Source of the DNA: Candidatus Heimdallarchaeota archaeon B3_Heim
GTDB taxonomy: Archaea; Asgardarchaeota; Heimdallarchaeia; Hodarchaeales; Hodarchaeaceae
Direction: 5' to 3'
Length of the DNA stretch: 32,000 nt
NCBI GenBank assembly: GCA_003144275.1
Contig: NJBF01000007.1
Coordinates: forward strand, 30,001-62,000
Below, piece by piece: positions 8,254-32,000 of this stretch. Both the position numbers and the translations under genes were made by a program. Under the pieces are notes generated by a model. The model did not search any database. It was not told the origin of the DNA and saw only the letters and a program-made list of their open reading frames with translations. Position 1 is the stretch's first letter. Every line of letters begins with the position of its first letter.

Positions 8254-8718
8254 ATGGCATCATCCAAAAAATCATCTTTGGAAAAAACAAGTAAACTGGA
8301 GAAGAAAGTTCTTCATGTTACCAAAGAGGAATTTTTTTCATTAAAACCTATTCAAAGTACATTCCTCACTGTTTTAAAAGAAAAAGAAGATGGCTTATTA
8401 TTAGAAGTTAATATTGCACAATTTAAGAAAAAATCGATAAGAAGAAGATTAATTCCTTCACCAAATTATAGGAAAATCCAATTAGATAAACTGGGTAAAT
8501 TTACATTCGAATTATGTAATGGAAATAATACAGTTAAGCAGATCATTCGAAAATTTCAAGAAACATTTAAATTAACGCTAACTGAGACAGAAACAGCAGT
8601 TGCAAAATACCTGACGTTACTTAACACACGACACTTAATTGGTTGGCAAATTCCTCAAGATATGATTGAAGGGACTGATTCGAAGGACAAAAAAGTTGAC
8701 GAAATTTCTCTGGATTAG
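8254..8718 (+). CDS. Stand-alone PqqD/RRE-like protein
   Basis: RKIQLDKLGKFTFELCNGNNTVKQIIRKFQETFKLTLTETETAVAKYLTLLNTRHLIG fits the PqqD-family pattern (LdxxGxxxWelcdGxxTvxxI...vxxflxxLxxxxLI), preceded by beta-strands. Confidence 0.75.
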   Translation: MASSKKSSLEKTSKLEKKVLHVTKEEFFSLKPIQSTFLTVLKEKEDGLLLEVNIAQFKKKSIRRRLIPSPNYRKIQLDKLGKFTFELCNGNNTVKQIIRKFQETFKLTLTETETAVAKYLTLLNTRHLIGWQIPQDMIEGTDSKDKKVDEISLD

Positions 8719-8739
8719 CTTGTCTTACAGAGTAATCAT

Positions 8740-9696
8740 TCAATTCTTGGTGATTGCAAACTTTACTACATTCTCAATTATTCGTCTAATATGCTTATAC
8801 GTTGAAGTCTGAGTTTTATACTTGAAAATTAAACAGTAGATATCATTTTTTTCTTCACTTTGCCAAAAATACCCTTGAAATTCGGATCCTGACCTCAATG
8901 GGAGTTTTCTTTTCTGAATATTCTTGTTATACTGCCATAAAACTCCCTCTGTTTGCCCTATTTTCTTTTTGCTGAATTCACTTTCACTCGGTCTAAAACC
9001 TGAAGGGATCCTAGGGAGCTTTTTTGGATAATAATTCATGAACCACACTGGTAACTCATCAATAGAGTTAATTTTTTGGTTTGCTAAACCCAATCTATAA
9101 CAATACATATCTAGAGACTTATATCGAAGCTGGAAAAACGTTAATCCTACTAGAAAAGACTGTTTAACTAGGTTCATTGATCGTGGGGTCATAACGGTCA
9201 GATTTGGTGCAATCCATTTACTCTCATAGTCTATTGGATGACAATTTATTGTTTCAAGGATTTGCATGATGTTAGCTTTAATTTTATTAGCTTGATCGCT
9301 TGAAAATTGGCTTTGCATTATGATTAATCTTTTTAGTACATCACAATTCCATACTACGATATAACCGTGTAGTGTCATATCCTCAGTTATCCAGTATAAT
9401 GTTTTAGCCGAATGATCATTAACCTTAATTCCACTTTCGGTACGTTTCTTGATTTTCTTTCGCTCTTTCAGAATAGTCTTGAAATAATCATCAATTACAA
9501 CATCTAAATCAGGGGTTTTCCCCTTCTCAACTTCGACCCAGCGAAATTCCAATATTTTTTTTTCTGTAGTACGAAAACCAAAATAACCCGTCATCTCTTT
9601 GCCTTTCCTCTTCTGTGTTTTCGTTGCAAACACCATTTCCCATTCATCTGGGACATTTAAGACTATATCCTGCCAACCGATGGTTTTAAAGTCCAT
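8740..9696 (-). CDS. Hypothetical soluble protein, possibly two PsbP/Mog1/DcrB-like repeats (ATG 9696 preferred)
   Basis: Long ORF with no TM segment. An AGGAG at 9712-9708 overlaps the track's GTG, which favours ATG 9696. The N-terminal WQDIVLNVPDEWEM is echoed by the mid-protein WIAPNLTVMTPRSMNL. Confidence 0.65.
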   Translation of the reverse strand: MDFKTIGWQDIVLNVPDEWEMVFATKTQKRKGKEMTGYFGFRTTEKKILEFRWVEVEKGKTPDLDVVIDDYFKTILKERKKIKKRTESGIKVNDHSAKTLYWITEDMTLHGYIVVWNCDVLKRLIIMQSQFSSDQANKIKANIMQILETINCHPIDYESKWIAPNLTVMTPRSMNLVKQSFLVGLTFFQLRYKSLDMYCYRLGLANQKINSIDELPVWFMNYYPKKLPRIPSGFRPSESEFSKKKIGQTEGVLWQYNKNIQKRKLPLRSGSEFQGYFWQSEEKNDIYCLIFKYKTQTSTYKHIRRIIENVVKFAITKN

Positions 9697-9767
9697 ATTA
9701 AGATCCACTCCTATAAAGACTCTGAGGAAAGGTAACTATTGGAAGATGAAATAGAGGTTTATTAGGG

Positions 9768-10814
9768 TTGTTAAATAACGTTGCTCTATTTACTGAGCCA
9801 AAAAGCATTAATCTTCAAACGATTGATATTCCCAAGATAAAAGAATCAGAAATTCTGGTAAAAACAGCATATTGTGGACTCTGTGGAACGGATATTCACC
9901 TTTATGATGGAAAAGTACCTTTTGCAAACTATCCATTAGTGCCTGGTCATGAATTTTCAGGAGAAATAATTAAGGTCGGTTCCAAGGTAAAGAATGACCT
10001 GAAAATTGGTGATAGAGTAGCAATTAATCCGAATTTGTCCTGTTATGACTTACAGAAGAAATTATGTTATTATTGCGAAAAGAATCGAAAACATTTCTGT
10101 GTGGCATGGGAAGCGATAGGAGTTACCTTGAATGGTGCTTTCGCAGAATATGTCATTTGCCCAAGCACCGTTGCTTATAAAATTCCCGATAATGTCTCTT
10201 TAAAAGCTGCTGCGTTTATGGAACCACTTGCTTGCTGTTTACATGGCTTAAACAATATGACGATAATGGATTCAGATGTTGTCTTTATTATTGGCTGCGG
10301 ACCCATTGGTTTATTGATGCTCTCTGTTATAAAAGCAACTACGTCTTGTAAGGTAATAGTAAGCGAGCCTGTAAATTCTCGAAGAAATTTAGCCAGAAAA
10401 ATTGGAGCAGATGTGATATTAAATCCATTAAGCGATGAAATAGTCCCAATTATTAATTCCGAGACATGTGATAAAGGAGTGGATGTTGCGATAGAGTGTG
10501 TGGGATTATCAAATACTGCAAAGCAAGCGATTGGTAGCCTGAACAAAGGAGGAAAAGCATTGATTTTTGGGGTCGCTGATCCTTTATCAACTATAGATTT
10601 GGATATTCACAGACTATATTCTAATGAAATTTCAATTTTTGGAAGTTTTACTAATCCCAATACAAACATGAGAGCTTTAGACTTACTATCTAAGGATATA
10701 CTAACACCTATTCCAATTATTTCTCATGAATTCCCAATAAAGAGGATTGAAGAAGCCATTTCTCTTATAAAAAGCCATGTAGATAATGTGAATAAGATTT
10801 TAATAAATCCCTAA
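9768..10814 (+). CDS. Zn-dependent medium-chain dehydrogenase (threonine/sorbitol/polyol dehydrogenase-like)
   Basis: CGLCGTDIH, GHEFSG, structural-Zn cysteines (CYDLQKKLCYYCEKNRKHFC), EPLACCLHG, GCGPIG Rossmann motif. TTG start with GAGGT about 9 nt upstream. Confidence 0.9.
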   Translation: MLNNVALFTEPKSINLQTIDIPKIKESEILVKTAYCGLCGTDIHLYDGKVPFANYPLVPGHEFSGEIIKVGSKVKNDLKIGDRVAINPNLSCYDLQKKLCYYCEKNRKHFCVAWEAIGVTLNGAFAEYVICPSTVAYKIPDNVSLKAAAFMEPLACCLHGLNNMTIMDSDVVFIIGCGPIGLLMLSVIKATTSCKVIVSEPVNSRRNLARKIGADVILNPLSDEIVPIINSETCDKGVDVAIECVGLSNTAKQAIGSLNKGGKALIFGVADPLSTIDLDIHRLYSNEISIFGSFTNPNTNMRALDLLSKDILTPIPIISHEFPIKRIEEAISLIKSHVDNVNKILINP

Positions 10815-10904
10815 AATTAACTTGGGAATTGAGATACTCCAAAAGTAAATTAACCCGTGAATTTAATAATAAACAAACTTCTTGAATAATCCAAGGAAAA
10901 GAAA

Positions 10905-11285
10905 ATGATGTCTGAAAGCACCATTCAATGTCCCTGTGGCCGAACAATCCATGATTATTCGGACTATTCTCTTCTGTATTTGAAAAAAGAATTTGGTGAA
11001 GGAGGAGAGATCGATATTCTATGTAAAAATGATTATTGCTATTTGAGAGAGCTAGGGTACTTGAAATTTAGTATTGACAAAGCCAAAAAAGTTATTTTAG
11101 AAAAAGGTAAATTCTATGCCCCATATGTGACATGGAACGCGACAAGAATGTCCGAAGATAGGACTGTTGAAATTCTCAAACAGCATCTAGTTGATATTAC
11201 AGAAAAGCTAGTTCAATGGCAGAAAGTTATGAAAAGTACAGATGAAGAAAAGGTACAATCAATTTCTGAGGAAGTAATTACGTGA
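10905..11285 (+). CDS. Hypothetical protein with four cysteines (CPC...CxxxxC), putative Zn-binding
   Basis: QCPCGR...ILCKNDYCYLRELG. Its stop overlaps the next start (GTGA at 11282-11285), indicating translational coupling. Confidence 0.7.
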   Translation: MMSESTIQCPCGRTIHDYSDYSLLYLKKEFGEGGEIDILCKNDYCYLRELGYLKFSIDKAKKVILEKGKFYAPYVTWNATRMSEDRTVEILKQHLVDITEKLVQWQKVMKSTDEEKVQSISEEVIT

Positions 11286-11884
11286 GCTTAGATTTACCAG
11301 AACCCAAATTTTCAATCTCTGAGGTTTTTTATTTATCTTATTCAAATATTAAAAGACGATTTTTCCGTTCTGTTATAACAGCCTTAGGAATTATACTAGG
11401 AATCGCATTTATGGCTGCATTATTAACAAATTCACTTATTTTAGATTGGTTACAGACTGGATCAGGTGTAGAAGCATATCAATATTGGTTAGTAGGGATT
11501 TCATTAATAGTTGCTTTTGGAGGAATAACCAACTCAATGCTGATGGCTGTTAACGAAAGAGTAAAAGAAATTGGGGTTTACAAATGTATTGGAGGATTAG
11601 ATAGTCACATTGTTCGGTTATTTATAGTAGAAGCCTTACTTTTAGGAATATTGGGAGGTTTCCTTGGAGGAATTATCGGCATAGGAATGGGAATTGGAAT
11701 TAATTTAAATCGAGCTTCATTACAGGAGTTATCCGTCCTCCTAGAGTCGAATATCACCTCTCTGATATTGCTTTTATTGGCTTGTATTGTCCTTGCAATA
11801 GTATTAACTTCACTCGCTACATTCATTCCTGCTCGTAGAGCTTCTAAACTATCACCAGCGGAAGCTTTAAGATACGAAAACTAG
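11282..11884 (+). CDS. Minimal FtsX/MacB-type ABC permease (4 TM, no extracytoplasmic domain)
   Basis: NIKRRFFRSVITALGIILGIAF (MacB TM1 motif), NSMLMAVNERVKEIGVYKCIG...FIVEALLLGILGG (FtsX coupling motif), C-terminal PARRASKLSPAEALRYE. Confidence 0.88.
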   Translation: MSLDLPEPKFSISEVFYLSYSNIKRRFFRSVITALGIILGIAFMAALLTNSLILDWLQTGSGVEAYQYWLVGISLIVAFGGITNSMLMAVNERVKEIGVYKCIGGLDSHIVRLFIVEALLLGILGGFLGGIIGIGMGIGINLNRASLQELSVLLESNITSLILLLLACIVLAIVLTSLATFIPARRASKLSPAEALRYEN

Positions 11885-11899
11885 TATGGCGGTTAATTT

Positions 11900-12622
11900 A
11901 TGAGTTTAGAAGAATTCGTCGTTGAAATAGATGATGTATACAAGGAATATACTTTAGGAAAGGTTATAATCCATGCTCTTCAGGGAGTTTCATTTAAGAT
12001 CAAACGAGAGGAATATGTTTCTATAATGGGTCCATCTGGATCGGGAAAAAGTACCATTTTCAATGCTATTGGTGGTTTAGATACAGTTACTAGTGGCGAA
12101 ATTTACATAGACCAAGTAGACATAGCTGAATTGGATGCCTATGAATTAGCATGGTTGAGGAATCGGAAAATTGGATATATCTTTCAGACATTTAACTTAC
12201 TACTTGCCTTTTCTGCACAGGAAAATATTGAAATTCCAATGGTATTTGCTGGTGTTCCAAGAGAGGATAGAAAGAAGAAATCAAAAGAAATTTTAAAAAT
12301 GGTGGGCTTAGAAGATCGAGCTAAGAATAAGCCAGGTCAGTTATCGGGGGGACAGCAACAGCGAGTGGCAATAGCTCGAGCTCTAGCCAATGATCCTGCA
12401 ATCATACTAGCAGATGAACCGACTGCGAACCTCGATTTAGCAACAGGATTGGAAATAATCGGGTTGCTCAAAAGGCTCAACGAAGAACAAGGAACGACAA
12501 TTGTGTCTGCTACACATGATCTGAAAATGATTAGCATTAGTGACAGAATTATCTGGATTCGAGATGGAAAAGTAGATAGAATTGAAGACAGAGCTGATAT
12601 TCAAGTAGACGCAATGACGTAA
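11900..12622 (+). CDS. ABC ATP-binding protein, LolD/MacB/FtsE type (paralog 1)
   Basis: Walker A GPSGSGKST, Q-loop IFQTFNL, signature LSGGQQQR, Walker B IILADEPT, H-loop ATHD. Confidence 0.95.
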   Translation: MSLEEFVVEIDDVYKEYTLGKVIIHALQGVSFKIKREEYVSIMGPSGSGKSTIFNAIGGLDTVTSGEIYIDQVDIAELDAYELAWLRNRKIGYIFQTFNLLLAFSAQENIEIPMVFAGVPREDRKKKSKEILKMVGLEDRAKNKPGQLSGGQQQRVAIARALANDPAIILADEPTANLDLATGLEIIGLLKRLNEEQGTTIVSATHDLKMISISDRIIWIRDGKVDRIEDRADIQVDAMT

Positions 12623-12626
12623 TGGA

Positions 12627-13373
12627 GTGAAAAAGTTGTCAGAAGATATTACCATACAGATGGAGAATGTAGTAAAAACTTATCAACTGGGAAGTCAGGA
12701 AGTCAAGGCATTAAACGGAATTTCCCTTTCTATCCCACGCGGTGAGTTTCATGTTATCATGGGTCCATCTGGATCAGGAAAAACAACATTTCTCAATATG
12801 GTTGGTGCACTAGACGTTCCTTCGGAAGGTGAGGTCTACTTTGAGGGGGTTCCTCTTTCTAATCTGACTCAAAAACAACTAGCTTCCTTGAGAGCATATA
12901 AAATCGGATTTATCTTTCAAACATTTAATTTAGTACCAGTAATAACAGCCTTGGAGAATGTTACTCTACCATTAATATTTCAGAATTATCCTCGAGAAGA
13001 ACGAAGAAAAAGAGCAAAAGAAATATTAAAACGCGTTGGTTTAGAGGATCGAATGAACCACACACCAGATGAATTGTCTGGAGGACAACAACAGCGAGTC
13101 GCCATCGCTCGTGCACTTGCAGGGGAGCCAAGTCTTGTCTTAGCAGACGAACCAACTGGAAATCTAGATTTAAAAACAGGATTTTCCATAGTCGAATTAT
13201 TAAGAAAAATTTGTCATGAAACTGGTGTTACAGTGATAAATTCGACTCATGACTTGAAATTAATCGATATTGCTGATAAGATTTCGTGGTTACGAGACGG
13301 TGTTATAACAAGAACCCAAAAAAGAATTGATGTGTCGATATCTTCTGAAGATGTGACTATTCCTTCATATTAA
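12627..13373 (+). CDS. ABC ATP-binding protein, LolD/MacB/FtsE type (paralog 2)
   Basis: Walker [44 protein letters not shown] start 4 nt after the previous stop. Confidence 0.95.
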
Positions 13374-13466
13374 CACTCTATAAAGAATTTTCTTCAGGAA
13401 AAAACTTAAAAGTTGACAGAATATATTCAAAAAAACACGTTAAATACAAAATTTGGTGAGTAAATT

Positions 13467-13652
13467 TTGGCAGAAAATAGTGATATTATTGCAGGTGTAT
13501 GCGTTGTATTAGCTCTACTACTTGCTATTTATAGTACTCCTGTGATGGATGCAATTGGTGAATTATTATTATTTCTCATTGAAATTGGGTTACTCATATT
13601 AATAGTAGTGACTGCAATTTATGGACAGCGTATGTCAAGAAGCCGTGGATAA
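13467..13652 (+). CDS. Small two-TM membrane protein (61 aa)
   Basis: TTG start preceded by GGTGAG (13455-13460). Two hydrophobic stretches and a basic C-terminus (RMSRSRG). It does not overlap neighbouring genes. Confidence 0.6.
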   Translation: MAENSDIIAGVCVVLALLLAIYSTPVMDAIGELLLFLIEIGLLILIVVTAIYGQRMSRSRG

Positions 13653-13669
13653 TTTATTCGATCCATCCC

Positions 13670-16096
13670 TTAAGGACATTTCTCGATTGGGGTAAGCACG
13701 ACATAGAAAATTTCTCCTTCATGTAGATCAAATTTTATTCCAGTATTCAGCTCTTTTTTTGAGAGAGTGAGGACATTTGTTCTCTTGACTCTGCTAAGTG
13801 TTTGAATCCTCATCTCATAGTTTTCATAATCTCTTGGATAAAAAGTGATCTGACAGTTAGTGTGTTCAACTAACGGATTATAAATAATGAAGTTTAGTTT
13901 CTTAGGAGGAAAAATGTCCATCAAAGGAAAATCGAAAAGATCTAGATTTAAAACCATTATATCAGGCTTGATACTTTTGGCTAATGCCTCAAACATTAAA
14001 TAAAGATATATTATTTCCCCTGCACCGTATATCTCCCTTCCCAAAGTGCCTGACCGTGCACCTTTTTTGGAATATTCCTGGGAAGCGGAAAAATGCGGGG
14101 GTGTTTCCAGCATCTCAAGATCTTCAAATGGAATATATGGACAAGGGGTGTTTCTTCTCGATGGATAAATAAATTCCTCTGATAAGACGTTTGAGAAAAA
14201 ATAGAAAGTATTAATCCTGATGAGATTCATGATTTTCATGGCACCTCTAGGCAAGATCTGAATTTTCTCTTCCTTTAAAGCTGTTTTCAAAAATATTAAC
14301 CATGGGAGGACTGATTCAATATTTTCTTTTACAGCAGGATATCGAATACCTATACATGCCATAGGCAATCCTAAATTAGATCGTTTACCCTTCCAATCAA
14401 ATGAATTGTCATTATACCAGTAAAACATTCTTAATTCATTAAATAAGAACTTCCTCGCTATTTCTAAGTATGTATAATCTTTTGAAATACTAGCAAGTTC
14501 AGCAAATCCTGACACAGCATAAGCTATCTCAAAAGGTTCCCAAAATAATGTGTCTGGAGAAAATTCGGCCAGTTTCTTCGCGCTTTTGATTGCTTCGTCA
14601 AGATATTGACTTTTTTGAAAGAGATGGTAAGCTTCGATTACAATATATAAATGGATGCCAAGGCAGGCGTAATTTTTTGCTTTTCGTTTCCAAATTATGT
14701 CCTGTTCACCCCTAGATCTCTTCAAGAGTATTTCTCTTTGTTCATCATCATCCAGAACTTCGTAAAGTGGTTTAAGAGTAAATGGATCATAAAAAGCAGT
14801 AATTTCATAATTATGCTTTTTAACGAACTCCATAGATTTTTTTACCATATTTCTAAACGTTTCGAGATAACTTTGACTATTGGAAAGCAAAGGGAAGAGT
14901 CGTACTACCCAACCTAACCTTAAAATAGGCTCAAAAAAGTACCACGAATCTCCAATTGAATATTCTGTTGCTTTAATTATAGTATGGCCTTTGTCAGGGT
15001 AATAATCTATATTATTATAAAAAAAATTTGAGGCAGGGTCAATAAAGTGATTTAAAGTCCTATACATTCGACGAACATGATTTTCTTGAGAATTACTAGG
15101 ATTTAGAGTTAAGTATAAGATCCAAGGCGGAAGAAGTGAGAGTAATGTCATTGTTTCAAATACATTTGATCTTCCTATTGCTTCTCTTCGTTGAAGTTCT
15201 GAGTCATCCATTACATAAGCATAATATTTAGGAGATTTTGGATCAACCCAACAATATTTTTCTTTCAAAAGATCATCAATGCATCCCTTAGAAAATTCTG
15301 TCCAATTTAACCCTTCTTTTGGATAGGGAACTTGTCCTGGAATTAATGAAAAACATCGAGTAATAAGATTCTCCATCAAATCCCATTGGTTTGGTTGTAC
15401 TTCACAGTATTCCTGTGTAATATAATAGTCAAACACTATTGTTGACCCTTTCGGAAATGTTATTGACGATTTAAGGGGAATCCTATGTATTAAACCAATT
15501 GTTCCACTTGAATGAACACCACATTCATAGATTGAAAATCGCTCTATGTTTTTTGGTGACATCCATTCCATTTTTGAAAAATTCATAAAGAAAAATGTTT
15601 GAACTTTTGATTCGGGATTCCAAACTGCCGCGGCTGGCATATCATTTGATTTCCACTCGTTAGTAGGAGGAGTATGTCGACTTGGCTGTTGAATAGTCAC
15701 CACATTTTTTGAAAGATGAATTTTCGGTATAAGATGGATTTTTATCTCAGGACCAGTTTTATAAAATGTATAATCTTTGTTGAATTTTATTTTAGTTGTA
15801 AAATGAATCCAAGGATGAATATTGTTCTGAGTTTCAATCTCTGTAGATATTGTAAATCCTACATCTCTTTTATTTTCAAGCTGGAGAAGTGAGTGATTTT
15901 TTTTTGCAGTACTGGGAAGAAAATCAGCTGCACAAATTGATATTCCATTTTCTAATGTTATGAGAGGTATTTTTGCACTTTCTTGCCATTTGTCTTTTAT
16001 TCTAAGCTGTAAGAATATTATAAAGTGGTTTTTTTCTTTTTTCAACAAAATTGACTGATGTTCCGTTACCAAAAACTTGTTTTGGATTGATTCCAT
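13670..16096 (-). CDS. Uncharacterised cytoplasmic protein, probable (alpha/alpha)-barrel glycoside-hydrolase-like; paralog of 30222..32000
   Basis: 808-aa ORF without signal peptide or TM. Helical repeat pattern (YHLFQKSQYLDEAIKSA; DYTYLEIARKFL). Shares DSWY, ExxEIA, KENIES, YIPxED and EIYGAGE blocks with the last ORF. The CDS is secure; the function is inferred. Confidence 0.75.
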   Translation of the reverse strand: MESIQNKFLVTEHQSILLKKEKNHFIIFLQLRIKDKWQESAKIPLITLENGISICAADFLPSTAKKNHSLLQLENKRDVGFTISTEIETQNNIHPWIHFTTKIKFNKDYTFYKTGPEIKIHLIPKIHLSKNVVTIQQPSRHTPPTNEWKSNDMPAAAVWNPESKVQTFFFMNFSKMEWMSPKNIERFSIYECGVHSSGTIGLIHRIPLKSSITFPKGSTIVFDYYITQEYCEVQPNQWDLMENLITRCFSLIPGQVPYPKEGLNWTEFSKGCIDDLLKEKYCWVDPKSPKYYAYVMDDSELQRREAIGRSNVFETMTLLSLLPPWILYLTLNPSNSQENHVRRMYRTLNHFIDPASNFFYNNIDYYPDKGHTIIKATEYSIGDSWYFFEPILRLGWVVRLFPLLSNSQSYLETFRNMVKKSMEFVKKHNYEITAFYDPFTLKPLYEVLDDDEQREILLKRSRGEQDIIWKRKAKNYACLGIHLYIVIEAYHLFQKSQYLDEAIKSAKKLAEFSPDTLFWEPFEIAYAVSGFAELASISKDYTYLEIARKFLFNELRMFYWYNDNSFDWKGKRSNLGLPMACIGIRYPAVKENIESVLPWLIFLKTALKEEKIQILPRGAMKIMNLIRINTFYFFSNVLSEEFIYPSRRNTPCPYIPFEDLEMLETPPHFSASQEYSKKGARSGTLGREIYGAGEIIYLYLMFEALAKSIKPDIMVLNLDLFDFPLMDIFPPKKLNFIIYNPLVEHTNCQITFYPRDYENYEMRIQTLSRVKRTNVLTLSKKELNTGIKFDLHEGEIFYVVLTPIEKCP

Positions 16097-16312
16097 GAGA
16101 ATTATCGACTCAAATTTTATCTTAAAATTTCTATTCAGTAGAGTAAGTCCTTACCCGTATAAATGAGCATATTCGTTTTTAGTAAATTATTGGGATATAG
16201 AATAATTGGAACCTAGCTCGTTATTACCTAAGAATTGAAGAACTTATCGAAAAACTTGGTTTTTTATTTCAACGGCATGAAGCTTTTTTTGATTGGTTTT
16301 GTTATCTGGGGT

Positions 16313-16325: not shown

Positions 16326-16388
16326 CACACTAATATCGTTCCTACGAGCTAATTAATTTTTAACATTTGCCCTTCCTATCAGGTTTGT

Positions 16389-25067: not shown

Positions 25068-25185
25068 GGGTATTAACAGTCAAGTAATTAACAAACAAAT
25101 ATGGGCAAATAGACCAAGAGAAATGTAACAACAAAGGAAGGGCGGATAGAAGCAGAATTAGCGCCAGTCTTTCAGAACGGTAATA

Positions 25186-25866
25186 TTATAATCTGGCTTC
25201 AGTTTCTTTTGTAATTCTTTGTACGTTGATAGAAATATCTTCTAAAAGTTCGATGATTAGATCCAGTGTCTGAAAATATTTCTTTTTTGAAAAAATCACA
25301 TCAATAAATTTCTCAATACTTATATTCCAAATAAGTTCAGAGGGAGATTCGTATCTTTCTTTAAATTTGCGAGAATATTCGTCAAGATCTTTTGTAATAA
25401 TTGGTTGTGAGAAGAGCCGAACTGATAACTGATCTGGCACAATTTTGTGAATACATTGCAAAAGTGAGCTTTCTTGGTTTAAAATTTCAACTAATGATGA
25501 GTTTATGTATACATTCGTATTCTCATTCTGTAAATATTCAAGAAAAGGAGAGGAGTGGAACCGATAATTTTTCCTAACAAATCCTGTTCTTTCTAGCTCA
25601 CATTCATATCCCTTAAGGCGTTGAAAGAGAAGAATATTTTCAGAAGAGAAGTTTTCTTTATCAATTATTACTACTGAGGCTGTGAATTCCCAAGATTTAT
25701 CAGAAGAATATGAAAGTCGTTTGGATCTAACAAGTATCGAATTAAAATGGTAGCCTGATTTAGGAACTAAAATACTTGCCCCTAGATCGGAAATTTGCCA
25801 GTCCCCGTACTTGGACATGTACTTAGCAAAGGGAGCTAATAGGCCGTCACTGTAAGATTCAACCAT
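25186..25866 (-). CDS. Hypothetical soluble protein (226 aa)
   Basis: Non-overlapping ORF filling the gap between the OPT-like gene and 26039. No recognisable motif. Confidence 0.65.
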   Translation of the reverse strand: MVESYSDGLLAPFAKYMSKYGDWQISDLGASILVPKSGYHFNSILVRSKRLSYSSDKSWEFTASVVIIDKENFSSENILLFQRLKGYECELERTGFVRKNYRFHSSPFLEYLQNENTNVYINSSLVEILNQESSLLQCIHKIVPDQLSVRLFSQPIITKDLDEYSRKFKERYESPSELIWNISIEKFIDVIFSKKKYFQTLDLIIELLEDISINVQRITKETEARL

Positions 25867-26038
25867 ACAAACTCATCAGGATTAATTGTGTTTTGATGGA
25901 CTTAGTCTGGGGTTTAAGATTCATTTGTTCCCCTTAAGGCGTATTACTTTGTACAGGAAATACTCTTTTAAACAACTCTTATTTCATAATTTGTTCAATA
26001 AAACAAAAAACTTACTTGTTTCTTTGCGGTGAATTCCC

Positions 26039-28318
26039 ATGAAAAAATCGTTAAAATCCTTAATCTTTATTGTTTTAATAATGTCTCTTCTGACTCAAGT
26101 TAACATTGGCCAAAGTAGATCGAATTTCTCTCCAATAGCTGAAAAGAGAATAGTCAGTAAAACTGTTGCAACTGATGAGATGATCAAGGTAAACATTAAT
26201 GTGACTGCTCCCGGCACACATGATTTACCAGAATTTACAGTCATTATAATTAAATTGAACGAAATAGCCTCTAACCTACCAGTATCCATAGATTCTTTCG
26301 GTATGAATACACCTGAAAGCACAGATGATATTAAATGGAATGCTGCATATGTCACATATGAGGGTTCATTAATCCCGTCTCAAGTAGATGATGTCGATGG
26401 AATAACAGGATTTTCAGAAAATGATGAATTGCTATTTGCACTTCCAGAATCAGTCAATCTAGCTATAGGCCAGAGTGCTCAATTTATTGTCTACTTTAGC
26501 CTATTGGATTTGGATCTTCCTCCTCCATATTTTCCAGAAGTCTGCAGTCTCATTGTTTATCCAAAACTAAAGGCAATCGATGATCTTCATTCTGATATGA
26601 TTGACCCAAATGACGGGGCATATTACATTGGAAATGAGATCATACAAGGGGCAGTATTAATCGCAGCCGCATGGTCTTCGGGGACTATGTATGAATTGTC
26701 ACTTTTAGATGATCAAGGAGAGTCCCGATGGGATATAATTAAACAAAGAAGGGACCCCCCCCCCATTGATTCTCAGGTTTGGAAATGGTCTCGTTTTGCT
26801 CGATTTGAAGAGTTCACCTCGCAAAATCAATATGCTACTCGTCCCTATCCTGGAAAATTAGTCGAATTGATCCCTGGCCCTATTCGTGCCCGAATTACTG
26901 TACAAAGTACCCAACCCTACGTAAAAGGTGTATTTGGAGGACCAACGACACAAATAGATATATTTGGCTTATTCACGTATGATGTCTATGTTAATCAACC
27001 CTATCTTGACTATTCACTAGACATTACAGGCCCCAGCGCTGGTAGTATCGACGATCTTTCTCTTGAATTCCAAAACCGAGAATGGGGTGGTGGAAGACCT
27101 CAAACTCTTTATAAGGGAATATATATCCCAGGATATACCGAAGATATAGGCTATGGTGAAGGATGGGTTATGCGGGGCCCAGATGACACTGATATTCATA
27201 AAATTAATGCAAACATTTTTGATTCCCCGTGGTATCTCGAGGCATTATTGGAGGGCACAACAGTCATTCCTCCCTCATTAGCGGAACCAAATGACGACCA
27301 GCGTGGATATGGGTTCATTTTTGATGAGACTGGTTTCAGCAATCTTGAATGGAGTGCTTCAACTGAAGGTGTAAAGAACATGTATTCAGCAGCACAGTTT
27401 CCATTTAATACAAGATACCATCCATTCGATGGTGATATCCTTCAAGGGCAGGACAAAATTGAATTTATGGAAGATAAATATGACGAATATTTGAGACCTG
27501 ACCCCATATTCAGTTTTAATAGCTCTATCATCTCCATAACTGACATTCCTTTTGATTATCTTTTTGTTTCTTCACCCGATGTGGAACTTGACTTTGACAA
27601 TGCTTTATTGCAGGTAGAAAATATTACAGCTTTTGCCACTGATGTTGCTGAGTTTGTTACAAACCTTACTGCCACGAGTGCAACTTATAAAATTTTCAAC
27701 TTTAAAGAAAAGTCAGAAACGGAATTAACTGGTAGTTTAGTATGGGATCCTACTTCCCAAACATGGGGTATTCCAGAAATTGATGTCTCATCCTTGAACC
27801 TATACAGTTCTTACTTCATTTCAGCCACCTTTGAAACTTCCACACTTGCTGGAGAAAGTCCTCCATCCGCACGCTGGGGTGGTGGTATAGATGTTTTCCC
27901 CCCCATTATAGGTTCTGTTACCAGAAATCCTTCTGATATTGTTCGTAGTGGAGATAGGGTGAATATTAGTGCCTCAGTTGAAGACGATGAAGGTGAAGTC
28001 ACCTCTGTGATATTACTCTATAATCACAACGGTACATGGTATGATGTGCCAATGGACATGGCCTATGGATTATACAAAGCATCTATTCCTCCTCAAAAGC
28101 AGGGGACAACAGTTGAGTACAAAATCACTGCCTATGATGATGCTACCCCCGAAAATTTCAATACTTCAGAGGTTTACAGTTATACCGTTGCAGTAGAATA
28201 TTCCCCTGGACAGGGACTAGTGCCACTGTTTCTTGGAGGTGGAGTGCTAATTGCTGCTGTAATTCTAGCTCTAAAATCCGGAGCACTTCATAGATTGAAA
28301 TACGACGAAGTAGATTGA
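26039..28318 (+). CDS. Secreted surface protein with C-terminal TM anchor; beta-supersandwich/DUF4861-like N-part plus Ig-like domains
   Basis: GGTGA RBS at 26028-26032. Signal peptide MKKSLKSLIFIVLIMSLL. IPSQVDDVDG...DELLFALP and GPIRARITV motifs. Ig-like PPII...VNISASVEDD...VEYKITAYD. TM LVPLFLGGGVLIAAVILAL. About 8 sequons. Confidence 0.78.
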   Translation: MKKSLKSLIFIVLIMSLLTQVNIGQSRSNFSPIAEKRIVSKTVATDEMIKVNINVTAPGTHDLPEFTVIIIKLNEIASNLPVSIDSFGMNTPESTDDIKWNAAYVTYEGSLIPSQVDDVDGITGFSENDELLFALPESVNLAIGQSAQFIVYFSLLDLDLPPPYFPEVCSLIVYPKLKAIDDLHSDMIDPNDGAYYIGNEIIQGAVLIAAAWSSGTMYELSLLDDQGESRWDIIKQRRDPPPIDSQVWKWSRFARFEEFTSQNQYATRPYPGKLVELIPGPIRARITVQSTQPYVKGVFGGPTTQIDIFGLFTYDVYVNQPYLDYSLDITGPSAGSIDDLSLEFQNREWGGGRPQTLYKGIYIPGYTEDIGYGEGWVMRGPDDTDIHKINANIFDSPWYLEALLEGTTVIPPSLAEPNDDQRGYGFIFDETGFSNLEWSASTEGVKNMYSAAQFPFNTRYHPFDGDILQGQDKIEFMEDKYDEYLRPDPIFSFNSSIISITDIPFDYLFVSSPDVELDFDNALLQVENITAFATDVAEFVTNLTATSATYKIFNFKEKSETELTGSLVWDPTSQTWGIPEIDVSSLNLYSSYFISATFETSTLAGESPPSARWGGGIDVFPPIIGSVTRNPSDIVRSGDRVNISASVEDDEGEVTSVILLYNHNGTWYDVPMDMAYGLYKASIPPQKQGTTVEYKITAYDDATPENFNTSEVYSYTVAVEYSPGQGLVPLFLGGGVLIAAVILALKSGALHRLKYDEVD

Positions 28319-28320
28319 GA

Positions 28321-28353
28321 AGAAGAATCAGGGGACTGGCCTTCTTCTTTTTT
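28321..28353 (+). terminator. Hairpin plus T-run terminator
   Basis: AGAAGAA-t-CAG-ggga-CTG-gcc-TTCTTCT followed by TTTTT, immediately after the stop at 28318. Confidence 0.45.
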
Positions 28354-28504
28354 CCTTATTTTTAATAAAACTGGTTGTAATCTTAAATCAATCAAGTGAA
28401 ATTCAAATCTATCGCAAGTTCTCCTCTTCAAGAATAAACGTTTTTTTTTATTATTCTTGGGGGAAAAACGGTCAAATGGGGACAATAAGATAATAATTTT
28501 TCCA

Positions 28505-28528
28505 ACCCATATGATTCACCCATATGAT
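28505..28528. repeat. 11-bp direct repeat ACCCATATGAT x2 (13-bp period)
   Basis: Copies at 28505-28515 and 28518-28528, each containing the palindrome CATATG, about 150 nt upstream of the PGF-CTERM gene. Confidence 0.5.
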
Positions 28529-28590
28529 GATGAAAAAAAGAAGAATATTGGAGTTATACTTAAAAAAGATAAAAAATGATTGAGTCTGTT

Positions 28591-28622
28591 AATAGAAAAC
28601 ACGTTTGTGTGTTATTTCTATT
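28591..28622. promoter_or_regulatory. Imperfect inverted repeat upstream of the PGF-CTERM gene
   Basis: AATAGAAAACAC-gtttgt-GTGT(ta)TTTCTATT: 12 complementary pairs with a 2-nt bulge. Confidence 0.3.
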
Positions 28623-28679
28623 CTTTAGAGGAAAATATTTCGAATTCTAAAGCTATCAAGAAACTGATTGGTTTTTAAA

Positions 28680-30077
28680 ATGCAAAAGAAAAAGATTCAG
28701 ATCTTATCACTAGGTCTATTTATCCTAGTATTATTTATGCAATCCCCTCAAACTGGAACAGCTTCAGTTTCTGCATGGAATGCAGTTACTATTGTTGTTA
28801 CAGCAGGTAGTGATGGATTAGCCGCCGGAACGCCTATTATTATGGCTGATTCAGAATTTTCAGGCGATTTCGCCTTAGCAACTGCGGTTGTTATGGATGG
28901 TGACACAGAGCTTCCCACACAATATGACGTTGATCTTGGTGAGTTAGTCTTCCAACTTCCCGCCGCGATCGCCGCTAGTGGTGAACAAACTTTTGAAGTA
29001 GAAGCAAGTTCATCAGGAGATACAAATGATCAAACTACATCAATCACAATGACTCAAGGTAATTATAGCGAAACATACTCTGATTATCTTCCTGATTGGT
29101 CTTCTGCCCTCTTAATGAATGGTACAGCATTAGCCAATGATGTACATTCACTTGGAGATGTCATTTGGGTAGAAACAGATTGGGGTGTTCTTTGTTTACA
29201 GGTTGCAGCAGATTGGAGACATGGGACGTGGAAACATGTCATTCTGAAAGCTGAGAATTGGGATGCCGTAGGCGGTTTCCATAAAGCAGCTACCAACTGG
29301 AGATGGCGATGGGCTCAAGCACTTTTCCAAGATGCAGATGAAGGATGGCAAGTAGGTGGTCGCGGACCCGATACTATTGAAATTATGACTTATGGTCCAG
29401 TTAGAGCTGTTATTAGAGCAGTGGCCAATTCTGACTTCAAGGATAACTATGCTCAACAAGTTCAAAATATGAATGCAACTCGAACCTATACCATTTACAG
29501 CGGAACCCCTGGAATTGCTCAACATTTCACCTTAACTGGCACTAATGCTACACAAGCAATGACAGATTTTAAAGTCCTGAACGAATTGGATGAACCCCTG
29601 AGAATGAAACATCAGCTCATGGATAGCCAATTCAACACCTCTGATTCAAATAATCTATCCACAATTTACGTACCAGGTGATGCAACCTACGCTAGAGGAG
29701 GTGCGGCGGTATTTAACCTGTCAAAAATCACCGATCCCTACTTCGCTGTTTATAATGATGTGAGTAAGCACGGCTATGTTTACAATTATGGTCCATCTTC
29801 GATTATGGACAAATTGACAAACATAGACGTGGGAAATGAAGTTGTTATGAACTACGCGTTCGATGCTTTCCCAACTGGTGGATTTAATCGATATTGGACG
29901 CCTTTCAGCACTTTTACAGGGGCTATTGCTGATCACGCAGCAGCATTAAACACTATGTGGGTAGCGTCTTACACAACTGCTATGGAAGAACATGCCAAAC
30001 CTGCACCTGGGTTTGAAATCGTTATGGGAACTCTCACTTTAGTGGGTTTAGCGATATTCGTTAGAAAGAGAAGATAA
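28680..30077 (+). CDS. Secreted surface protein with PGF-CTERM-type sorting signal; paralog of the 26039 protein (track start TTG 28668)
   Basis: Signal peptide MQKKKIQILSLGLFILVLFM...ASVSA. LPTQYDVDLGELVFQLP and GPVRAVIRA motifs. C-terminus PAPGFEIVMGTLTLVGLAIFVRKRR (PGF, TM helix, basic cluster). Seven sequons. Confidence 0.8.
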   Translation: MQKKKIQILSLGLFILVLFMQSPQTGTASVSAWNAVTIVVTAGSDGLAAGTPIIMADSEFSGDFALATAVVMDGDTELPTQYDVDLGELVFQLPAAIAASGEQTFEVEASSSGDTNDQTTSITMTQGNYSETYSDYLPDWSSALLMNGTALANDVHSLGDVIWVETDWGVLCLQVAADWRHGTWKHVILKAENWDAVGGFHKAATNWRWRWAQALFQDADEGWQVGGRGPDTIEIMTYGPVRAVIRAVANSDFKDNYAQQVQNMNATRTYTIYSGTPGIAQHFTLTGTNATQAMTDFKVLNELDEPLRMKHQLMDSQFNTSDSNNLSTIYVPGDATYARGGAAVFNLSKITDPYFAVYNDVSKHGYVYNYGPSSIMDKLTNIDVGNEVVMNYAFDAFPTGGFNRYWTPFSTFTGAIADHAAALNTMWVASYTTAMEEHAKPAPGFEIVMGTLTLVGLAIFVRKRR

Positions 30078-30093
30078 ATCACTCCTCTCTCCC

Positions 30094-30120
30094 TTTTTTC
30101 TTTTTTCTTTATTTTATCTT
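30094..30120 (+). terminator. Archaeal oligo-T terminator
   Basis: TTTTTTCTTTTTTCTTTATTTTATCTT starting 17 nt after the stop codon, in a convergent intergenic region. Confidence 0.55.
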
Positions 30121-30221
30121 TGATTTCAAGATTTCCATTCTCAATTTGTTCTAAACAAAAACATTGTTCTGTTGATCGAACTTACTGCTCGCAAGTTCAT
30201 TCTAGGAGCATTTTGGATTTC

Positions 30222-32000
30222 TCATTTTCTTTTTGGTAACATCGTATAGGTAAGAACAGCTATCAGGGACAGCCCAGAGATTCCAAGAAAGAGGAGTATT
30301 GGTAATTCTTTGAAGGAGTTATTTCCAGCAGGAATCGTCGTAACGTTCACAATCGGAAGTATCCATTCTGTTGAAATTTCTGATAACGTTATATACGCAG
30401 AACCAAGAGGGGGAAGAACAGTATTGAATGATTCCCCTGGTTGGTATTGACCACTGAATGTCCCATTCACATATATATCGTATTGATCTGTTAAGTGTTT
30501 TAATGTAAATTCCAAGCTTTTTTGCTGTTCATAAGGATTAAAAATCATAAAAATACGATTTTCAGGTTCAGGCAAATAAGACTGGTCAAAAATATTTAGA
30601 TTCACGATCAATGATTTATTATCTGTTGCTTCTCCCAAAGCTTCAAACATCAAAAAGTTCCATAGTGTTTCTCCAGCCCCATAAATTTCTTTTCCGTTAT
30701 ATCCTGCTTTCAATGGGTCAGGATCATAAAAACCTCTAGAAGTATGATAATCTATATCCTCATAAGGAATATATTGAAGTGTAGTTGGTCCATAATCTCT
30801 TTCATAGACATCGGGGATGCTAGGACTAAAGAAATAAAAGTTCTTTATTCGATTTAAATTTAAAATTTTGAGGGGTTCAATAGCTTTGAATCCAGGTCTA
30901 AAATATAGATTTTTGAGGTAGGATGTCCAAAACATTATTGATTCGATGTTTTCTTTATATGCGGGTGCATTAATACCTCCCGTATTTACTTCCTTGGGAT
31001 TAGCGTAGGGGGAGTGCAATCCATCTCGCCAATTTGAGGGTAACCAAGGACTCGGCTCGGGATTAAATCCAAATGACCAATCGATTTCTCCATTATTATA
31101 ATAAAGAACTTGTTCTTCTGCATAGAATAAATCGATAGCTAGTTGTGCAAAATCAGTTGAGGACTCAATGACATCTACATATTGAAGAAGTCTTGATGCC
31201 GCAGCTACTCCTGCAGCTATTTCCTGTGGTTCATACATTAGCTTATATGGTTCTTTAACAGCTCTCATTGCTTCGAGAGCAGTTTTGGCTTCGTTTAAAT
31301 ATTCAATATTACCTGTAAGCTCATAAACATCTATTAAACTGTAGGCCAACAAACCAGAGGTGCCATAATTAATATTAGTATTTCGAGTCTGTTGTTTTGT
31401 CTCAACACTTACAAATTGGGGGAATAAATAATTGAAATTGTGAGCCATCTCTATAGCGCTACCGAGAGAGCCATAAAAAGATTCATTTAATACTGAAGCT
31501 TGGCTCATCATAAATATTTGCCCCCACTTCAAGACTGAATTTTCTAAATAATACCAAGAATCGTGATTGGTTTCCCCCGGACCATTGGTAGCCTGTTCAT
31601 AGATGATGGAATAATATAAAGGTAAACTATTAATGAATTCTTCTACGAGTGATTGTTGTGTAGAATTTGGTTGAAGTTGGAGATAACGATATAACGGCCA
31701 GATAACATCTACTGTCGCTATAAGTTCAGCACTTTCTCTAGTCCAATCCTCTCCTCCCCATCCATCAGCACCTTTCACATACGGACGAAATCCAATGTTT
31801 CCTCCAGAAAGATTGATCCAACATTCATCAAAAGTTAAAAGATCATCAATACTTTTTTTAGTGTAGTCTGTCCAATTCGTAGCATGATCAGGATAATCAG
31901 CATACGCAGGTAGAATGTCTATCGCGGTTTTACGTGACGTAATCATTGAATTCCAATCGGTATAGATATTTACTCCAGTATTAAATTCAGGTAGGCTAAA
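30222..32000 (-). CDS. Membrane-anchored extracellular paralog of the 808-aa helical-barrel protein; 5'-truncated by the window edge
   Basis: The frame stays open upstream of the track's ATG 31946 to base 32000 (FSLPEFNTGVNIYTDWNS-MITS...). C-terminal TM LPILLFLGISGLSLIAVLTYTML plus PKRK. About 8 sequons. Shares motif blocks with 13670..16096. Confidence 0.82.
   Translation of the reverse strand, partial: FSLPEFNTGVNIYTDWNSMITSRKTAIDILPAYADYPDHATNWTDYTKKSIDDLLTFDECWINLSGGNIGFRPYVKGADGWGGEDWTRESAELIATVDVIWPLYRYLQLQPNSTQQSLVEEFINSLPLYYSIIYEQATNGPGETNHDSWYYLENSVLKWGQIFMMSQASVLNESFYGSLGSAIEMAHNFNYLFPQFVSVETKQQTRNTNINYGTSGLLAYSLIDVYELTGNIEYLNEAKTALEAMRAVKEPYKLMYEPQEIAAGVAAASRLLQYVDVIESSTDFAQLAIDLFYAEEQVLYYNNGEIDWSFGFNPEPSPWLPSNWRDGLHSPYANPKEVNTGGINAPAYKENIESIMFWTSYLKNLYFRPGFKAIEPLKILNLNRIKNFYFFSPSIPDVYERDYGPTTLQYIPYEDIDYHTSRGFYDPDPLKAGYNGKEIYGAGETLWNFLMFEALGEATDNKSLIVNLNIFDQSYLPEPENRIFMIFNPYEQQKSLEFTLKHLTDQYDIYVNGTFSGQYQPGESFNTVLPPLGSAYITLSEISTEWILPIVNVTTIPAGNNSFKELPILLFLGISGLSLIAVLTYTMLPKRK

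Follow-up and report, generated by a model that had tools for sequence, protein, structure and literature searches.

The locus studied here, from Candidatus Heimdallarchaeota archaeon B3_Heim (Hodarchaeales), raises the question of whether a type VII ABC system and two polytopic proteins resembling OPT permeases, encoded beside genes for mannose-glycan breakdown, form a single uptake machine. The window analyzed is a 32,000-nt stretch of contig NJBF01000007.1 (positions 30,001 to 62,000), and a first-pass annotation of its interval 8254-32000 had proposed such a machine. All of the genes listed in that annotation are present where it placed them, and the window holds the following features (coordinates, strand, description and, in parentheses, basis).

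1463-4375, +, GH38 alpha-mannosidase, cytoplasmic (Pfam; outside the annotated interval)
4685-5590, -, GH130 mannoside phosphorylase, cytoplasmic (Pfam; outside the annotated interval)
5710-8157, -, GH2 beta-mannosidase, cytoplasmic (Pfam; outside the annotated interval)
8254-8718, +, PqqD/RRE-like cytoplasmic protein, 154 aa (Pfam PqqD, 25 bits)
8740-9708, -, cytoplasmic protein of an unnamed family, 322 aa (homologues pair with the PqqD gene)
9768-10814, +, Zn-dependent polyol/threonine-type dehydrogenase, 348 aa (Pfam ADH_N, ADH_zinc_N)
10905-11285, +, Cys4 (CxC...CxxxxC) protein, 126 aa (4-nt overlap with the FtsX start)
11282-11884, +, small FtsX permease, 200 aa, 4 TM (Pfam FtsX, 64 bits; TM map)
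11900-12622, +, ABC ATPase 1, 240 aa, LolD/MacB/FtsE type (Pfam/NCBIfam)
12627-13373, +, ABC ATPase 2, 248 aa, LolD/MacB/FtsE type (Pfam/NCBIfam)
13467-13652, +, 2-TM protein, 61 aa (TM map; present in most Hodarchaeales loci examined)
13670-16096, -, 808-aa cytoplasmic protein, (alpha/alpha)6 glycosidase-like as a lead only (fold clusters)
16389-18587, +, DUF6785+DUF6784 polytopic protein, 732 aa, putative OPT-superfamily permease A (Pfam, 120.6 bits; hhalign)
18642-23147, +, giant permease, 1501 aa (Pfam M28, MacB_PCD, FtsX; AF2 fold)
23166-25067, +, 633-aa polytopic protein, putative OPT-superfamily permease B (family profile matches; AF2 fold)
25186-25866, -, 226-aa cytoplasmic protein with no family assigned (syntenic in Hodarchaeales)
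26039-28318, +, 759-aa surface protein with signal peptide and C-terminal TM (TM map/sequence)
28668-30077, +, 469-aa DUF4861 surface protein with signal peptide and C-terminal TM (Pfam, TM map)
30222-31946, -, 574-aa C-terminally anchored protein, paralogue of the 808-aa protein (TM map, paralogy)

Three of these genes, separated by 54 and 18 nt, form an operon in the order DUF6785 (732 aa), giant (1501 aa) and 633-aa protein. The claim that no classical solute-binding protein or type I permease is encoded here was borne out, as Pfam found neither in the window and returned zero matches to BPD_transp_1 across the whole 105-kb contig; the flanks of the window likewise contain no sugar transporter. 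The description of the genes as interleaved with mannosidases needs adjustment: the annotated GH38, GH130 and GH2 genes are adjacent, just upstream of the interval, whereas the interleaved 808-aa and 574-aa proteins only resemble (alpha/alpha)6 hydrolases. Specifically, in the Atlas clusters that neighbor the 808-aa protein (TM 0.6-0.8), a minority of members are labelled GH127 or GH76. The dehydrogenase at 9768-10814 (NCBIfam matches below cut-offs; syntenic in most Hodarchaeales loci examined) is a locus-specific catabolic gene.

A conserved module in distant lineages

The module is a conserved unit that joins a type VII ABC part (the giant, a small FtsX free of any ectodomain and two LolD-type ATPases) to two OPT/YSL-fold permeases that are paralogues of each other (DUF6785 and a member of a divergent OPT subfamily) and two cytoplasmic accessories (the PqqD/RRE-like protein and a ~320-aa protein of an unnamed family). 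When 20 Planctomycetota loci were sampled by anchoring on the OPT-subfamily gene alone, the giant gene lay directly upstream of it in all 20. The same order recurred in Armatimonadota, Tepidisphaerales, Verrucomicrobia and one more Planctomycetes record, and in three Bathyarchaeia loci, three further lineages and 11 Hodarchaeales. Across every locus examined, the OPT subfamily had the giant gene directly upstream, frequently overlapping or less than 20 nt away, and gene order was invariant over archaea and at least four bacterial phyla. Further, the OPT and DUF6785 trees exhibited identical subclades, even in genomes with several modules. The annotation had mentioned similar FtsX/M28/OPT/PqqD neighborhoods in other archaea and bacteria and had suggested profiling gene neighborhoods over genomes; such neighborhoods do exist, and the components travel as a unit in very distant lineages. 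We found no paper describing this module.

In a sample of 301 Asgard genomes, full-length matches to DUF6785 were confined to one Hodarchaeales genus, which probably acquired the module through gene transfer. Since synteny within the Hodarchaeales represents this one genus, it carries little weight as evidence.

Two divergent members of the OPT superfamily

The annotation had described the two polytopic proteins as OPT-like, and profile and model evidence places both in the OPT superfamily, a membership that is invisible to Pfam on the window proteins themselves. The 633-aa protein matches Pfam OPT (PF03169) at E 0.88 and 8.6 bits, under the gathering score, and the only matches of the 732-aa protein are to DUF6785/DUF6784, not OPT. 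Membership of the former is supported by family transitivity, with about half of its relatives (19 of 40) matching PF03169 at E <= 0.01 (best 1.3e-17), and by its predicted fold. Specifically, its AF2 model (pLDDT 89.7) matches barley YS1 of the OPT/YSL family (TC 2.A.67; PDB 7WST and 7WSR) with TM 0.66-0.72 and E 2e-11, at only ~13-16% identity, and also matches YSL and OPT proteins in Swiss-Prot. DUF6785 is linked to the 633-aa family by profile-profile comparison (hhalign probability 99.7, E 3e-27, 590 columns). Some OPT-subfamily members hold inserted Reg_prop beta-propeller or helical domains. Unlike known OPT/YSL systems, the module has two divergent paralogues and an obligate genomic link to an ABC motor. 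To our knowledge, all characterized OPT/YSL proteins are importers. Barley YS1 is itself an importer, and its scaffold domains join it into a homodimer (PMC9691689), so that a heteromeric OPT pair is conceivable.

The type VII ABC part

The giant is a MacB-type permease that carries a catalytically dead M28 head. In its predicted layout, a signal peptide or anchor and a PA/M28-like head are followed by three extra TM helices and a MacB-type 4-TM module, whose TM1 and TM2 enclose a periplasmic core domain; a conserved tail domain of ~160 aa lies in the cytoplasm. The three extra helices, which precede the FtsX module, were placed from the sequence by eye, and a hydropathy scan resolved two of them. 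Pfam found PF02687 in both the giant and the 200-aa FtsX. The giant's MacB_PCD match (24.6 bits) falls below the Pfam cut-off of 27, and in the AF2 model residues 800-1501 match MacB, LolC/E, YbbP, HrtB and BceB at probability 1.0, with a TMt of 0.65 against the MacB periplasmic domain (3ftj). N-glycosylation sequons are confined to the predicted outer parts.

Relative to the Aeromonas aminopeptidase (1AMP), the head carries Tyr in place of His97 and His-Asn in place of Glu151-Glu152, and the catalytic Glu pair is substituted in nearly all of 116 relatives. With this pair gone, the head is predicted to be able to bind and not to cleave, so the proposal that the ABC module "captures or processes" its substrate has to be narrowed to binding. 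Inactive PA/M28 ectodomains of the nicastrin, transferrin receptor and GCPII type offer a parallel for an aminopeptidase fold that lacks catalytic residues and may serve as a binding head, and one relative of the giant also matches the Pfam nicastrin family; unlike those ectodomains, the head here forms one polypeptide with an ABC permease. One giant-like paralogue, which lacks the periplasmic core domain, has neither an OPT nor an ATPase gene adjoining it.

In the small FtsX, the TM map places TM1 and TM2 only ~20 residues apart, which leaves no room for an ectodomain; its homologues are present in bacterial modules. Both ATPases have LolD, MacB-NBD, DevA, FtsE and YbbA as their top NCBIfam matches. 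The Cys4 gene, whose 4-nt overlap with the FtsX start makes the two translationally coupled, has a paralogue (E 1e-35) in the same slot of a second module on another contig (C31). Compared with the known type VII systems (MacB of MacAB-TolC, LolCDE, FtsEX, YbbAP-TesA, HrtBA and BceAB), the module shares the 4-TM FtsX module with its TM1-TM2 periplasmic core, the LolD/FtsE-type ATPases and, probably, an asymmetric permease pair, as in LolC/LolE. It deviates in the ~800-aa fused outer head, the extra helices and the cytoplasmic tail of the giant, in the missing ectodomain of the partner FtsX, and in always being encoded with OPT-fold permeases. None of the established partners (MacA/TolC, LolA, EnvC/PcsB, TesA) was found in the window or in eight Pfam-labelled non-Hodarchaeales loci. 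Further, the context of the module argues for import, and we know of no importer among the characterized type VII ABC systems.

Two cytoplasmic proteins complete the module. The PqqD/RRE-like protein, which passes the Pfam PqqD cut-off marginally (25 bits against 23.4), is by sequence a conserved accessory, with homologues annotated as PqqD located inside bacterial modules. In Armatimonadota and Planctomycetota modules, the gene directly preceding PqqD encodes a homologue of the 322-aa protein, whose relatives form unnamed Atlas clusters in Bathyarchaeota, Poribacteria and Armatimonadota and whose fold gave just a weak PsbP/DcrB-like match (TM 0.44). Like the discrete RRE/PqqD proteins of RiPP pathways, the PqqD-like protein is small and stands alone; unlike them, it has neither a RiPP enzyme gene nor a precursor gene close by (Pfam found no radical-SAM, YcaO or lasso modifying enzyme in the window) and accompanies a membrane module as a fixed accessory, paired with the ~320-aa protein. 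Three components, the OPT fold, the M28-like head and the PqqD/RRE fold, hint at peptide rather than sugar.

Glycan-breakdown and peptidase neighborhoods

The GH38, GH130, GH2 and 808-aa proteins have no signal peptides, so their substrates have to be taken into the cell, and the module stands as the only plausible importer in this mannose-glycan breakdown locus. Three of its nearest outside relatives (33-36% identity) reside in other glycan-breakdown loci: one has DUF6785, giant, OPT, GH130 and GH2 genes in one strand run, plus GH35/42; another has sulfatases and a GH53-like gene nearby; the third lies near a BNR sialidase-like gene, NanA-type lyases, GFO/IDH and a GH43-related gene. GH130 also adjoins the Tepidisphaerales module, and stand-alone DUF6785 genes occur near GH4 and GH38. 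The association with CAZymes is recurrent in independent lineages but not universal: no glycan genes lie beside the Armatimonadota, Verrucomicrobia and one Planctomycetes module, and a small set of glycan-enzyme queries matched in only 3 of the 20 Planctomycetota loci, among whose 129 neighbor ORFs the commonest matches were HEAT_2 (5), AP_endonuc_2 (3) and GH4 (2).

The second module of the same genome, which has a Cys4-FtsX-ATPase-ATPase cassette, a larger FtsX and an OPT-like protein of 739 aa, is surrounded by six TldD/PmbA genes and one gene for a PA-M28 peptidase, with no evident N-terminal signal peptide on any of these products. TldD/PmbA and M28 genes also flank a homologue that shares 72% identity with the OPT-like protein of this module.

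In several lineages, a conserved transport core beside varying glycan enzymes and surface proteins resembles the polysaccharide utilization loci of Bacteroidota, to which the annotation had likened the locus. The differences are that Pfam found no SusC/SusD families in the window, that the archaeon has no outer membrane, that no linked sensor or regulator was seen, and that the core sits in the cytoplasmic membrane with a CAZyme link that is not universal.

A possible route of import and its alternatives

The best explanation overall, to which we assign a probability of roughly 0.45, is that the module is a nutrient importer whose cargo here is a mannose-containing oligosaccharide. Import is the best reading given the position of the module among cytoplasmic GH38, GH130 and GH2 enzymes, the lack of a type I permease on the contig, the relatives in glycan loci and the paralogue among peptidases. 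Of the original inference of an uptake machine, the conserved unit, the OPT-superfamily assignment of both permeases and the mannoside-enzyme setting with no other importer nearby hold up, whereas a general CAZyme association and processing by the head do not. Under import, the OPT-fold permeases would be the membrane conduit, with an elevator-type fold as in barley YS1, and the ABC part, which would have no channel of its own, would use ATP to move its large outer domains, so that a bulky oligomer is bound at the cell surface and fed to the permeases, or the permeases are gated. In this Hodarchaeales genome the cargo, possibly peptide-linked, might undergo first external binding or cutting by the anchored surface proteins and, once imported, would be degraded by GH38, GH130, GH2 and the 808-aa protein. 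TRAP and TTT systems offer a conceptual parallel without homology: there, an extracytoplasmic binding component feeds a secondary-transporter-type permease, a role that an ATP-driven motor in the membrane, rather than a soluble binding protein, would play in the present module.

The same machine could instead work inward on peptides or glycopeptides, with the dead M28 head binding a peptide end outside, the OPT-fold permeases importing it, the PqqD/RRE-like protein and its 322-aa partner receiving it, and the mannosidases trimming imported N-glycopeptides. OPT proteins transport oligopeptides or amino-acid-derived chelates, the PqqD fold is a peptide clamp and the giant's head has an M28/PA fold, although by Pfam many bacterial giants lack that head. 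The paralogous module among TldD/PmbA and M28 peptidases and a pyroglutamyl peptidase gene ~2 kb past the window end also suit peptide cargo, but the former has neither the PqqD gene nor its partner, and the contexts of the three outside relatives described above contain sugar enzymes only. Similarly, GH38, GH130 and GH2 would fit breakdown of an N-glycan core, while PNGase, ENGase, aspartylglucosaminidase and hexosaminidase are all absent from the window and flanks. We regard this reading as unlikely.

Another explanation is an envelope-maintenance or export machine. Here the type VII ABC would act like LolCDE, MacB or YbbAP and extract or expel a glycoconjugate of the surface or a lipid-linked intermediate, with OPT-fold proteins as flippases or anchors and catabolic genes that are coincidental or recycle surface glycans. 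Such a machine would accord with the outward action or envelope partners of every characterized type VII ABC (PMC5985334, PMC12646458). GT4 glycosyltransferase genes near two bacterial modules, an upstream flank that resembles sugar-nucleotide biosynthesis (by eye only) and the glycosylatable surface proteins encoded at the locus point the same way. We consider it unlikely, as the Pfam-labelled loci contain no MacA/HlyD adaptor, TolC, LolA or EnvC-like partner, the module occurs alike in cells with one membrane and cells with two, its recurrent neighbors are cytoplasmic catabolic enzymes of varied specificity, and we know of no OPT-family exporter or flippase. The components could also belong to two systems, with an OPT-type importer co-regulated with a neighboring, unrelated ABC-VII system that serves, for example, in peptide resistance or sensing; this is suggested by many Planctomycetota loci, where the giant-OPT pair has no small FtsX or ATPase gene beside it, and by the solitary giant-like paralogue. 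The invariant order of near-overlapping genes over archaea and bacterial phyla, the constant placement of the giant directly upstream of the OPT subfamily and the joint diversification of the components as paralogous modules make such a separation very unlikely.

Returning to the nutrient importer, a broader and more doubtful possibility is that the module represents a new transporter class, in which a type VII mechanotransmission ABC loads or gates elevator-type OPT permeases for bulky oligosaccharides, glycopeptides and peptides. Interchangeable giant and OPT "specificity pairs" might then serve different polymers, in a system common to PVC bacteria, Bathyarchaeia and, by gene transfer, one Hodarchaeales genus.

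Gene content and layout

The window spans C96:30001-62000 of a 3.9-Mb MAG, and its proteins score best against Hodarchaeales, a lineage of the Heimdall group of Asgard archaea. Every gene listed by the first-pass annotation was recovered in the ORF listing and in Pfam and NCBIfam scans. The central genes fall into two plus-strand runs, the second of which holds a giant permease with an M28 head and a MacB-type FtsX module; just upstream of both, the genes for a PqqD-like protein and a 322-aa protein lie tail to tail.

Module genes and associated features in the window
Plus-strand run 1: Cys4 protein, FtsX (200 aa), ATPase, ATPase, 2-TM protein (gaps of -4, 15, 4, and 93 nt)
Plus-strand run 2: DUF6785 protein (732 aa), giant permease (1501 aa; 18642-23147), 633-aa polytopic protein (gaps of 54 and 18 nt)
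13670-16096, minus strand: putative (alpha/alpha)6-like family member
25186-25866, minus strand: 226-aa protein of unknown family
30222-31946, minus strand: putative (alpha/alpha)6-like family member

The mannosidases said to be interleaved with these genes (GH38, GH130, and GH2, at 1463-8157) do adjoin the interval, but none lies inside it. NCBIfam returned no match for the window's unknown proteins, Rfam returned no RNA family within the window, and the repeats within the interval look like chance. The 226-aa protein always follows the OPT gene in Hodarchaeales, and a matching stretch occurs inside a 1104-aa ORF in one genome (L012:18504-21818).

Two polytopic proteins of the OPT superfamily

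Both polytopic proteins flanking the giant are OPT-superfamily permeases, because relatives match PF03169, the 633-aa protein shares the fold of barley Yellow Stripe 1 (YS1), and the two families align by profile. On its own, the 633-aa protein reached only E 0.88 against Pfam OPT. An exhaustive search gathered 393 representative relatives, of which 40 were aligned, and 19 of those 40 matched PF03169 (best 1.3e-17). Its AF2 model (pLDDT 89.7, pTM 0.90) matched YS1 (7wst/7wsr) at E 2e-11 and TM 0.66-0.72, with further matches to plant YSL and fungal or bacterial OPT proteins. Direct BLASTP between the two polytopic proteins was not significant (E 0.36), and their relationship is visible by profiles only: the DUF6785 profile aligned with the 633-aa family profile over 590 columns (probability 99.7, E 3e-27). 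In a tree, the families form two paralogous clades. YS1 is a homodimer joined via scaffold domains, for which its authors proposed an elevator-like mechanism (PMC9691689); by analogy, a heteromer of the two OPT-like paralogues is conceivable. In some members of the OPT subfamily (P0285, P0289, P0293, and L050:8872-12123), a stretch of ~300 aa bearing Reg_prop (two-component regulator propeller) repeats is inserted, and one DUF6785 protein has a FeoB_Cyto-like helical insertion (L040:15545-18169).

The ABC components

Conservation among 110 relatives extends over the whole of the giant's C-terminal 700 residues, whose model (pLDDT 80.8) matched MacB, LolC/E, YbbP, YtrF, HrtB, and BceB at probability 1.0. 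Ahead of the 4-TM FtsX module, inspection of the sequence by eye shows three extra TM helices (a hydropathy scan resolved two), and a tail domain of ~160 aa follows the module. All N-glycosylation sequons fall within regions predicted to lie outside the cell: the head has 11, the core domain 4, and the tail none. Relative to Aeromonas aminopeptidase, the M28 head has Tyr in place of His97 and His-Asn in place of Glu151-Glu152, and almost none of 116 relatives retains the Glu pair; judged by these residues, the head is catalytically dead. In the 200-aa FtsX, TM1 and TM2 are separated by only ~20 residues, and both ATPases scored highest against LolD, MacB, DevA, FtsE, and YbbA in NCBIfam. The partner FtsX is not always ectodomain-free: in one relative it is a 965-aa protein with a CarboxypepD_reg-like domain and MacB_PCD (L058:611-3508), and the size of this second permease varies between lineages from 200 to nearly 1000 aa.

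The extra TM helices were considered as an OPT docking site. A 1256-aa M28-FtsX paralogue of the giant (L053:4392-8162, on contig C25 of the same genome, and L051:8001-11687) matches the extra-TM stretch, TM2-4, and the tail, without the periplasmic core domain, and one relative has it as an isolated gene, flanked by neither an OPT-like nor an ATPase gene. The docking idea is weakened because a paralogue without an OPT neighbor shares that stretch. A complex prediction of the giant's membrane domain (residues 815-975 and 1215-1345 as two chains) with the 633-aa protein scored 0.01, which counts neither way.

A conserved module beyond Hodarchaeales

Synteny across the whole locus extends to 11 other Hodarchaeales genomes, which weighs little because these belong to one GTDB genus. 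Distant lineages carry more weight, and there the components do co-occur, as the first-pass annotation had suspected.

Module genes in other lineages
Capsulimonadaceae (Armatimonadota): giant, OPT-like protein, 322-aa-like protein, PqqD, FtsX, ATPase
Tepidisphaerales: giant, OPT, DUF6785, 379-aa protein, PqqD, with GH130 next door
Verrucomicrobia: ATPase, PqqD, giant, OPT-like protein, DUF6785
Bathyarchaeia: module present
Further Planctomycetes record: module present

A search anchored on the OPT subfamily alone found it in 46 of 301 Planctomycetota genomes, with up to four matches per genome. In all 20 fetched Planctomycetota loci the giant gene lies directly upstream of the OPT gene on the same strand; adjacent genes include DUF6785 (15/20), small FtsX with ATPase (7/20), and PqqD with its partner (4/20). 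A DUF6785 alignment search reached 18 loci. The subclades of the OPT tree mirror those of the DUF6785 tree, including in genomes with several modules, and the module parts have therefore diversified together. The module is real and conserved, and our literature search found no paper on it, nor any containing both 'type VII ABC' and 'oligopeptide transporter'. In Thermoproteota, Bathyarchaeia, and Brockarchaeota, a distinct clade of DUF6785 genes stands alone, lacking both giant and OPT partners (L003, L019, L022-L024); one of these genes neighbors GH4, and another lies 5 kb away from a GH38.

Among Asgard genomes, Pfam DUF6785 was matched in 14 of 301. Eleven matches are full length and all come from one genus (the window genome plus 10 of its 20 other genomes); the remaining three are short and weak. 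The DUF6785 tree groups the Hodarchaeales clade with a Planctomycetota subclade as its sister (support 96, from a quick method with long branches). Gene transfer between the lineages, in either direction, is likely.

Glycan context and a paralogous module

Neither the GH38, GH130, and GH2 enzymes nor the 808-aa glycosidase-like protein at 13670-16096 has a signal peptide, and their substrates must therefore be imported. The 18-kb flanks hold no sugar transporter, and none of the 16 BPD_transp_1 matches in the genome falls on the window's 105-kb contig. Downstream, a further glycosidase-like surface protein, the last such at the locus, is adjoined by a pyroglutamyl peptidase (Peptidase_C15; L056:2148-2777 on contig C96, ~2 kb past the window end), after which the locus ends at methyltransferase, Na/Ca exchanger, and DNA primase genes. 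By N-terminal motifs, read by eye only, the upstream flank (L057, C96:12000-30000) resembles a sugar-nucleotide or nonulosonic-acid biosynthesis cluster. The (alpha/alpha)6-like family, with a third member at L056:169-2085 (minus strand), comprises one cytoplasmic and two anchored proteins, none with a Pfam match; Atlas neighbors suggest that they may be unclassified glycosidases of (alpha/alpha)6 GH127/GH76-like fold. A sequencing-run search returned no RNA runs and found the DNA at small share in marine and sediment metagenomes.

The three closest outside OPT relatives with long contigs (33-36% identity) lie in differing glycan loci. One has DUF6785, giant, OPT, GH130, and GH2 in one strand run, plus GH35/42; another has sulfatases, a GH53-like gene, and an MFS sugar carrier; the third has a BNR sialidase-like gene, NanA-type lyases, GFO/IDH, and a GH43-related gene. 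With the Tepidisphaerales GH130, these uphold the proposed association with CAZymes in part, but it is absent from 3 of 8 Pfam-labelled non-Hodarchaeales loci (Capsulimonadaceae, Verrucomicrobia, and the further Planctomycetes locus). Further, a small glycan-enzyme query set matched in only 3 of the 20 Planctomycetota loci, whose 129 neighbor ORFs were led, in raw counts, by HEAT_2 (5), AP_endonuc_2 (3), and GH4 (2). The link is recurrent, not universal.

A second module lies on contig C31 of the same genome (L052, C31:28000-46000), with ATPases of 246 and 253 aa, a 203-aa FtsX, a 128-aa Cys4 protein, a 739-aa OPT-like protein, and a 579-aa FtsX with MacB_PCD. Its Cys4-FtsX-ATPase-ATPase cassette keeps the gene order of the window, and the orthologue pairs match; beyond this, the module adds the 579-aa FtsX, with its core domain, and the 739-aa OPT-like protein. 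The tails of the giant and the 579-aa FtsX share only a short motif, which is not significant. This module is set among six TldD/PmbA genes, CbiX, and a 406-aa PA-M28 peptidase, and TldD/PmbA and M28 genes also flank a homologue 72% identical to its OPT-like protein. The same architecture thus stands beside cytoplasmic enzymes for different polymers, the pattern expected of an importer.

Interpretation and significance

The best-supported reading of the window locus is that it imports a mannose-containing oligomer; we assign this reading a probability of roughly 0.45, and its mechanism we infer. The uptake machine proposed in the first-pass annotation, a type VII ABC system putatively coupled to two OPT-like permeases, is partly supported by the conserved module and the import-like context. 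A glycopeptide or peptide cargo stays a serious rival to the mannose-containing oligomer because the OPT fold, the M28-like head, and the PqqD fold all point to peptides. By analogy, the module may instead have an outward-acting envelope role, since all known type VII systems act so, and to our knowledge no type VII ABC imports. A MacAB-TolC-like efflux pump was rejected: no adaptor or exit duct was seen in the window or in the eight Pfam-labelled loci, and the host is an archaeon.

We know of no described transport system that joins a MacB/FtsX-type motor to permeases of secondary-transporter fold, and the module would represent a new membrane-transport architecture if the ABC-OPT coupling is real. 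It is common in glycan-degrading lineages from which SusC/SusD loci are absent (Planctomycetota, Verrucomicrobiota, Kiritimatiellia, and Bathyarchaeia). The module itself would work at the inner, not the outer, membrane. What makes the Hodarchaeales locus useful is that its enzymes point to a cargo that can be tested, mannosides or N-glycan cores; the peptidase-linked paralogue on C31 offers a built-in contrast within the same genome. The locus also places a probable nutrient-uptake module of bacterial type in archaea closely related to eukaryotes.
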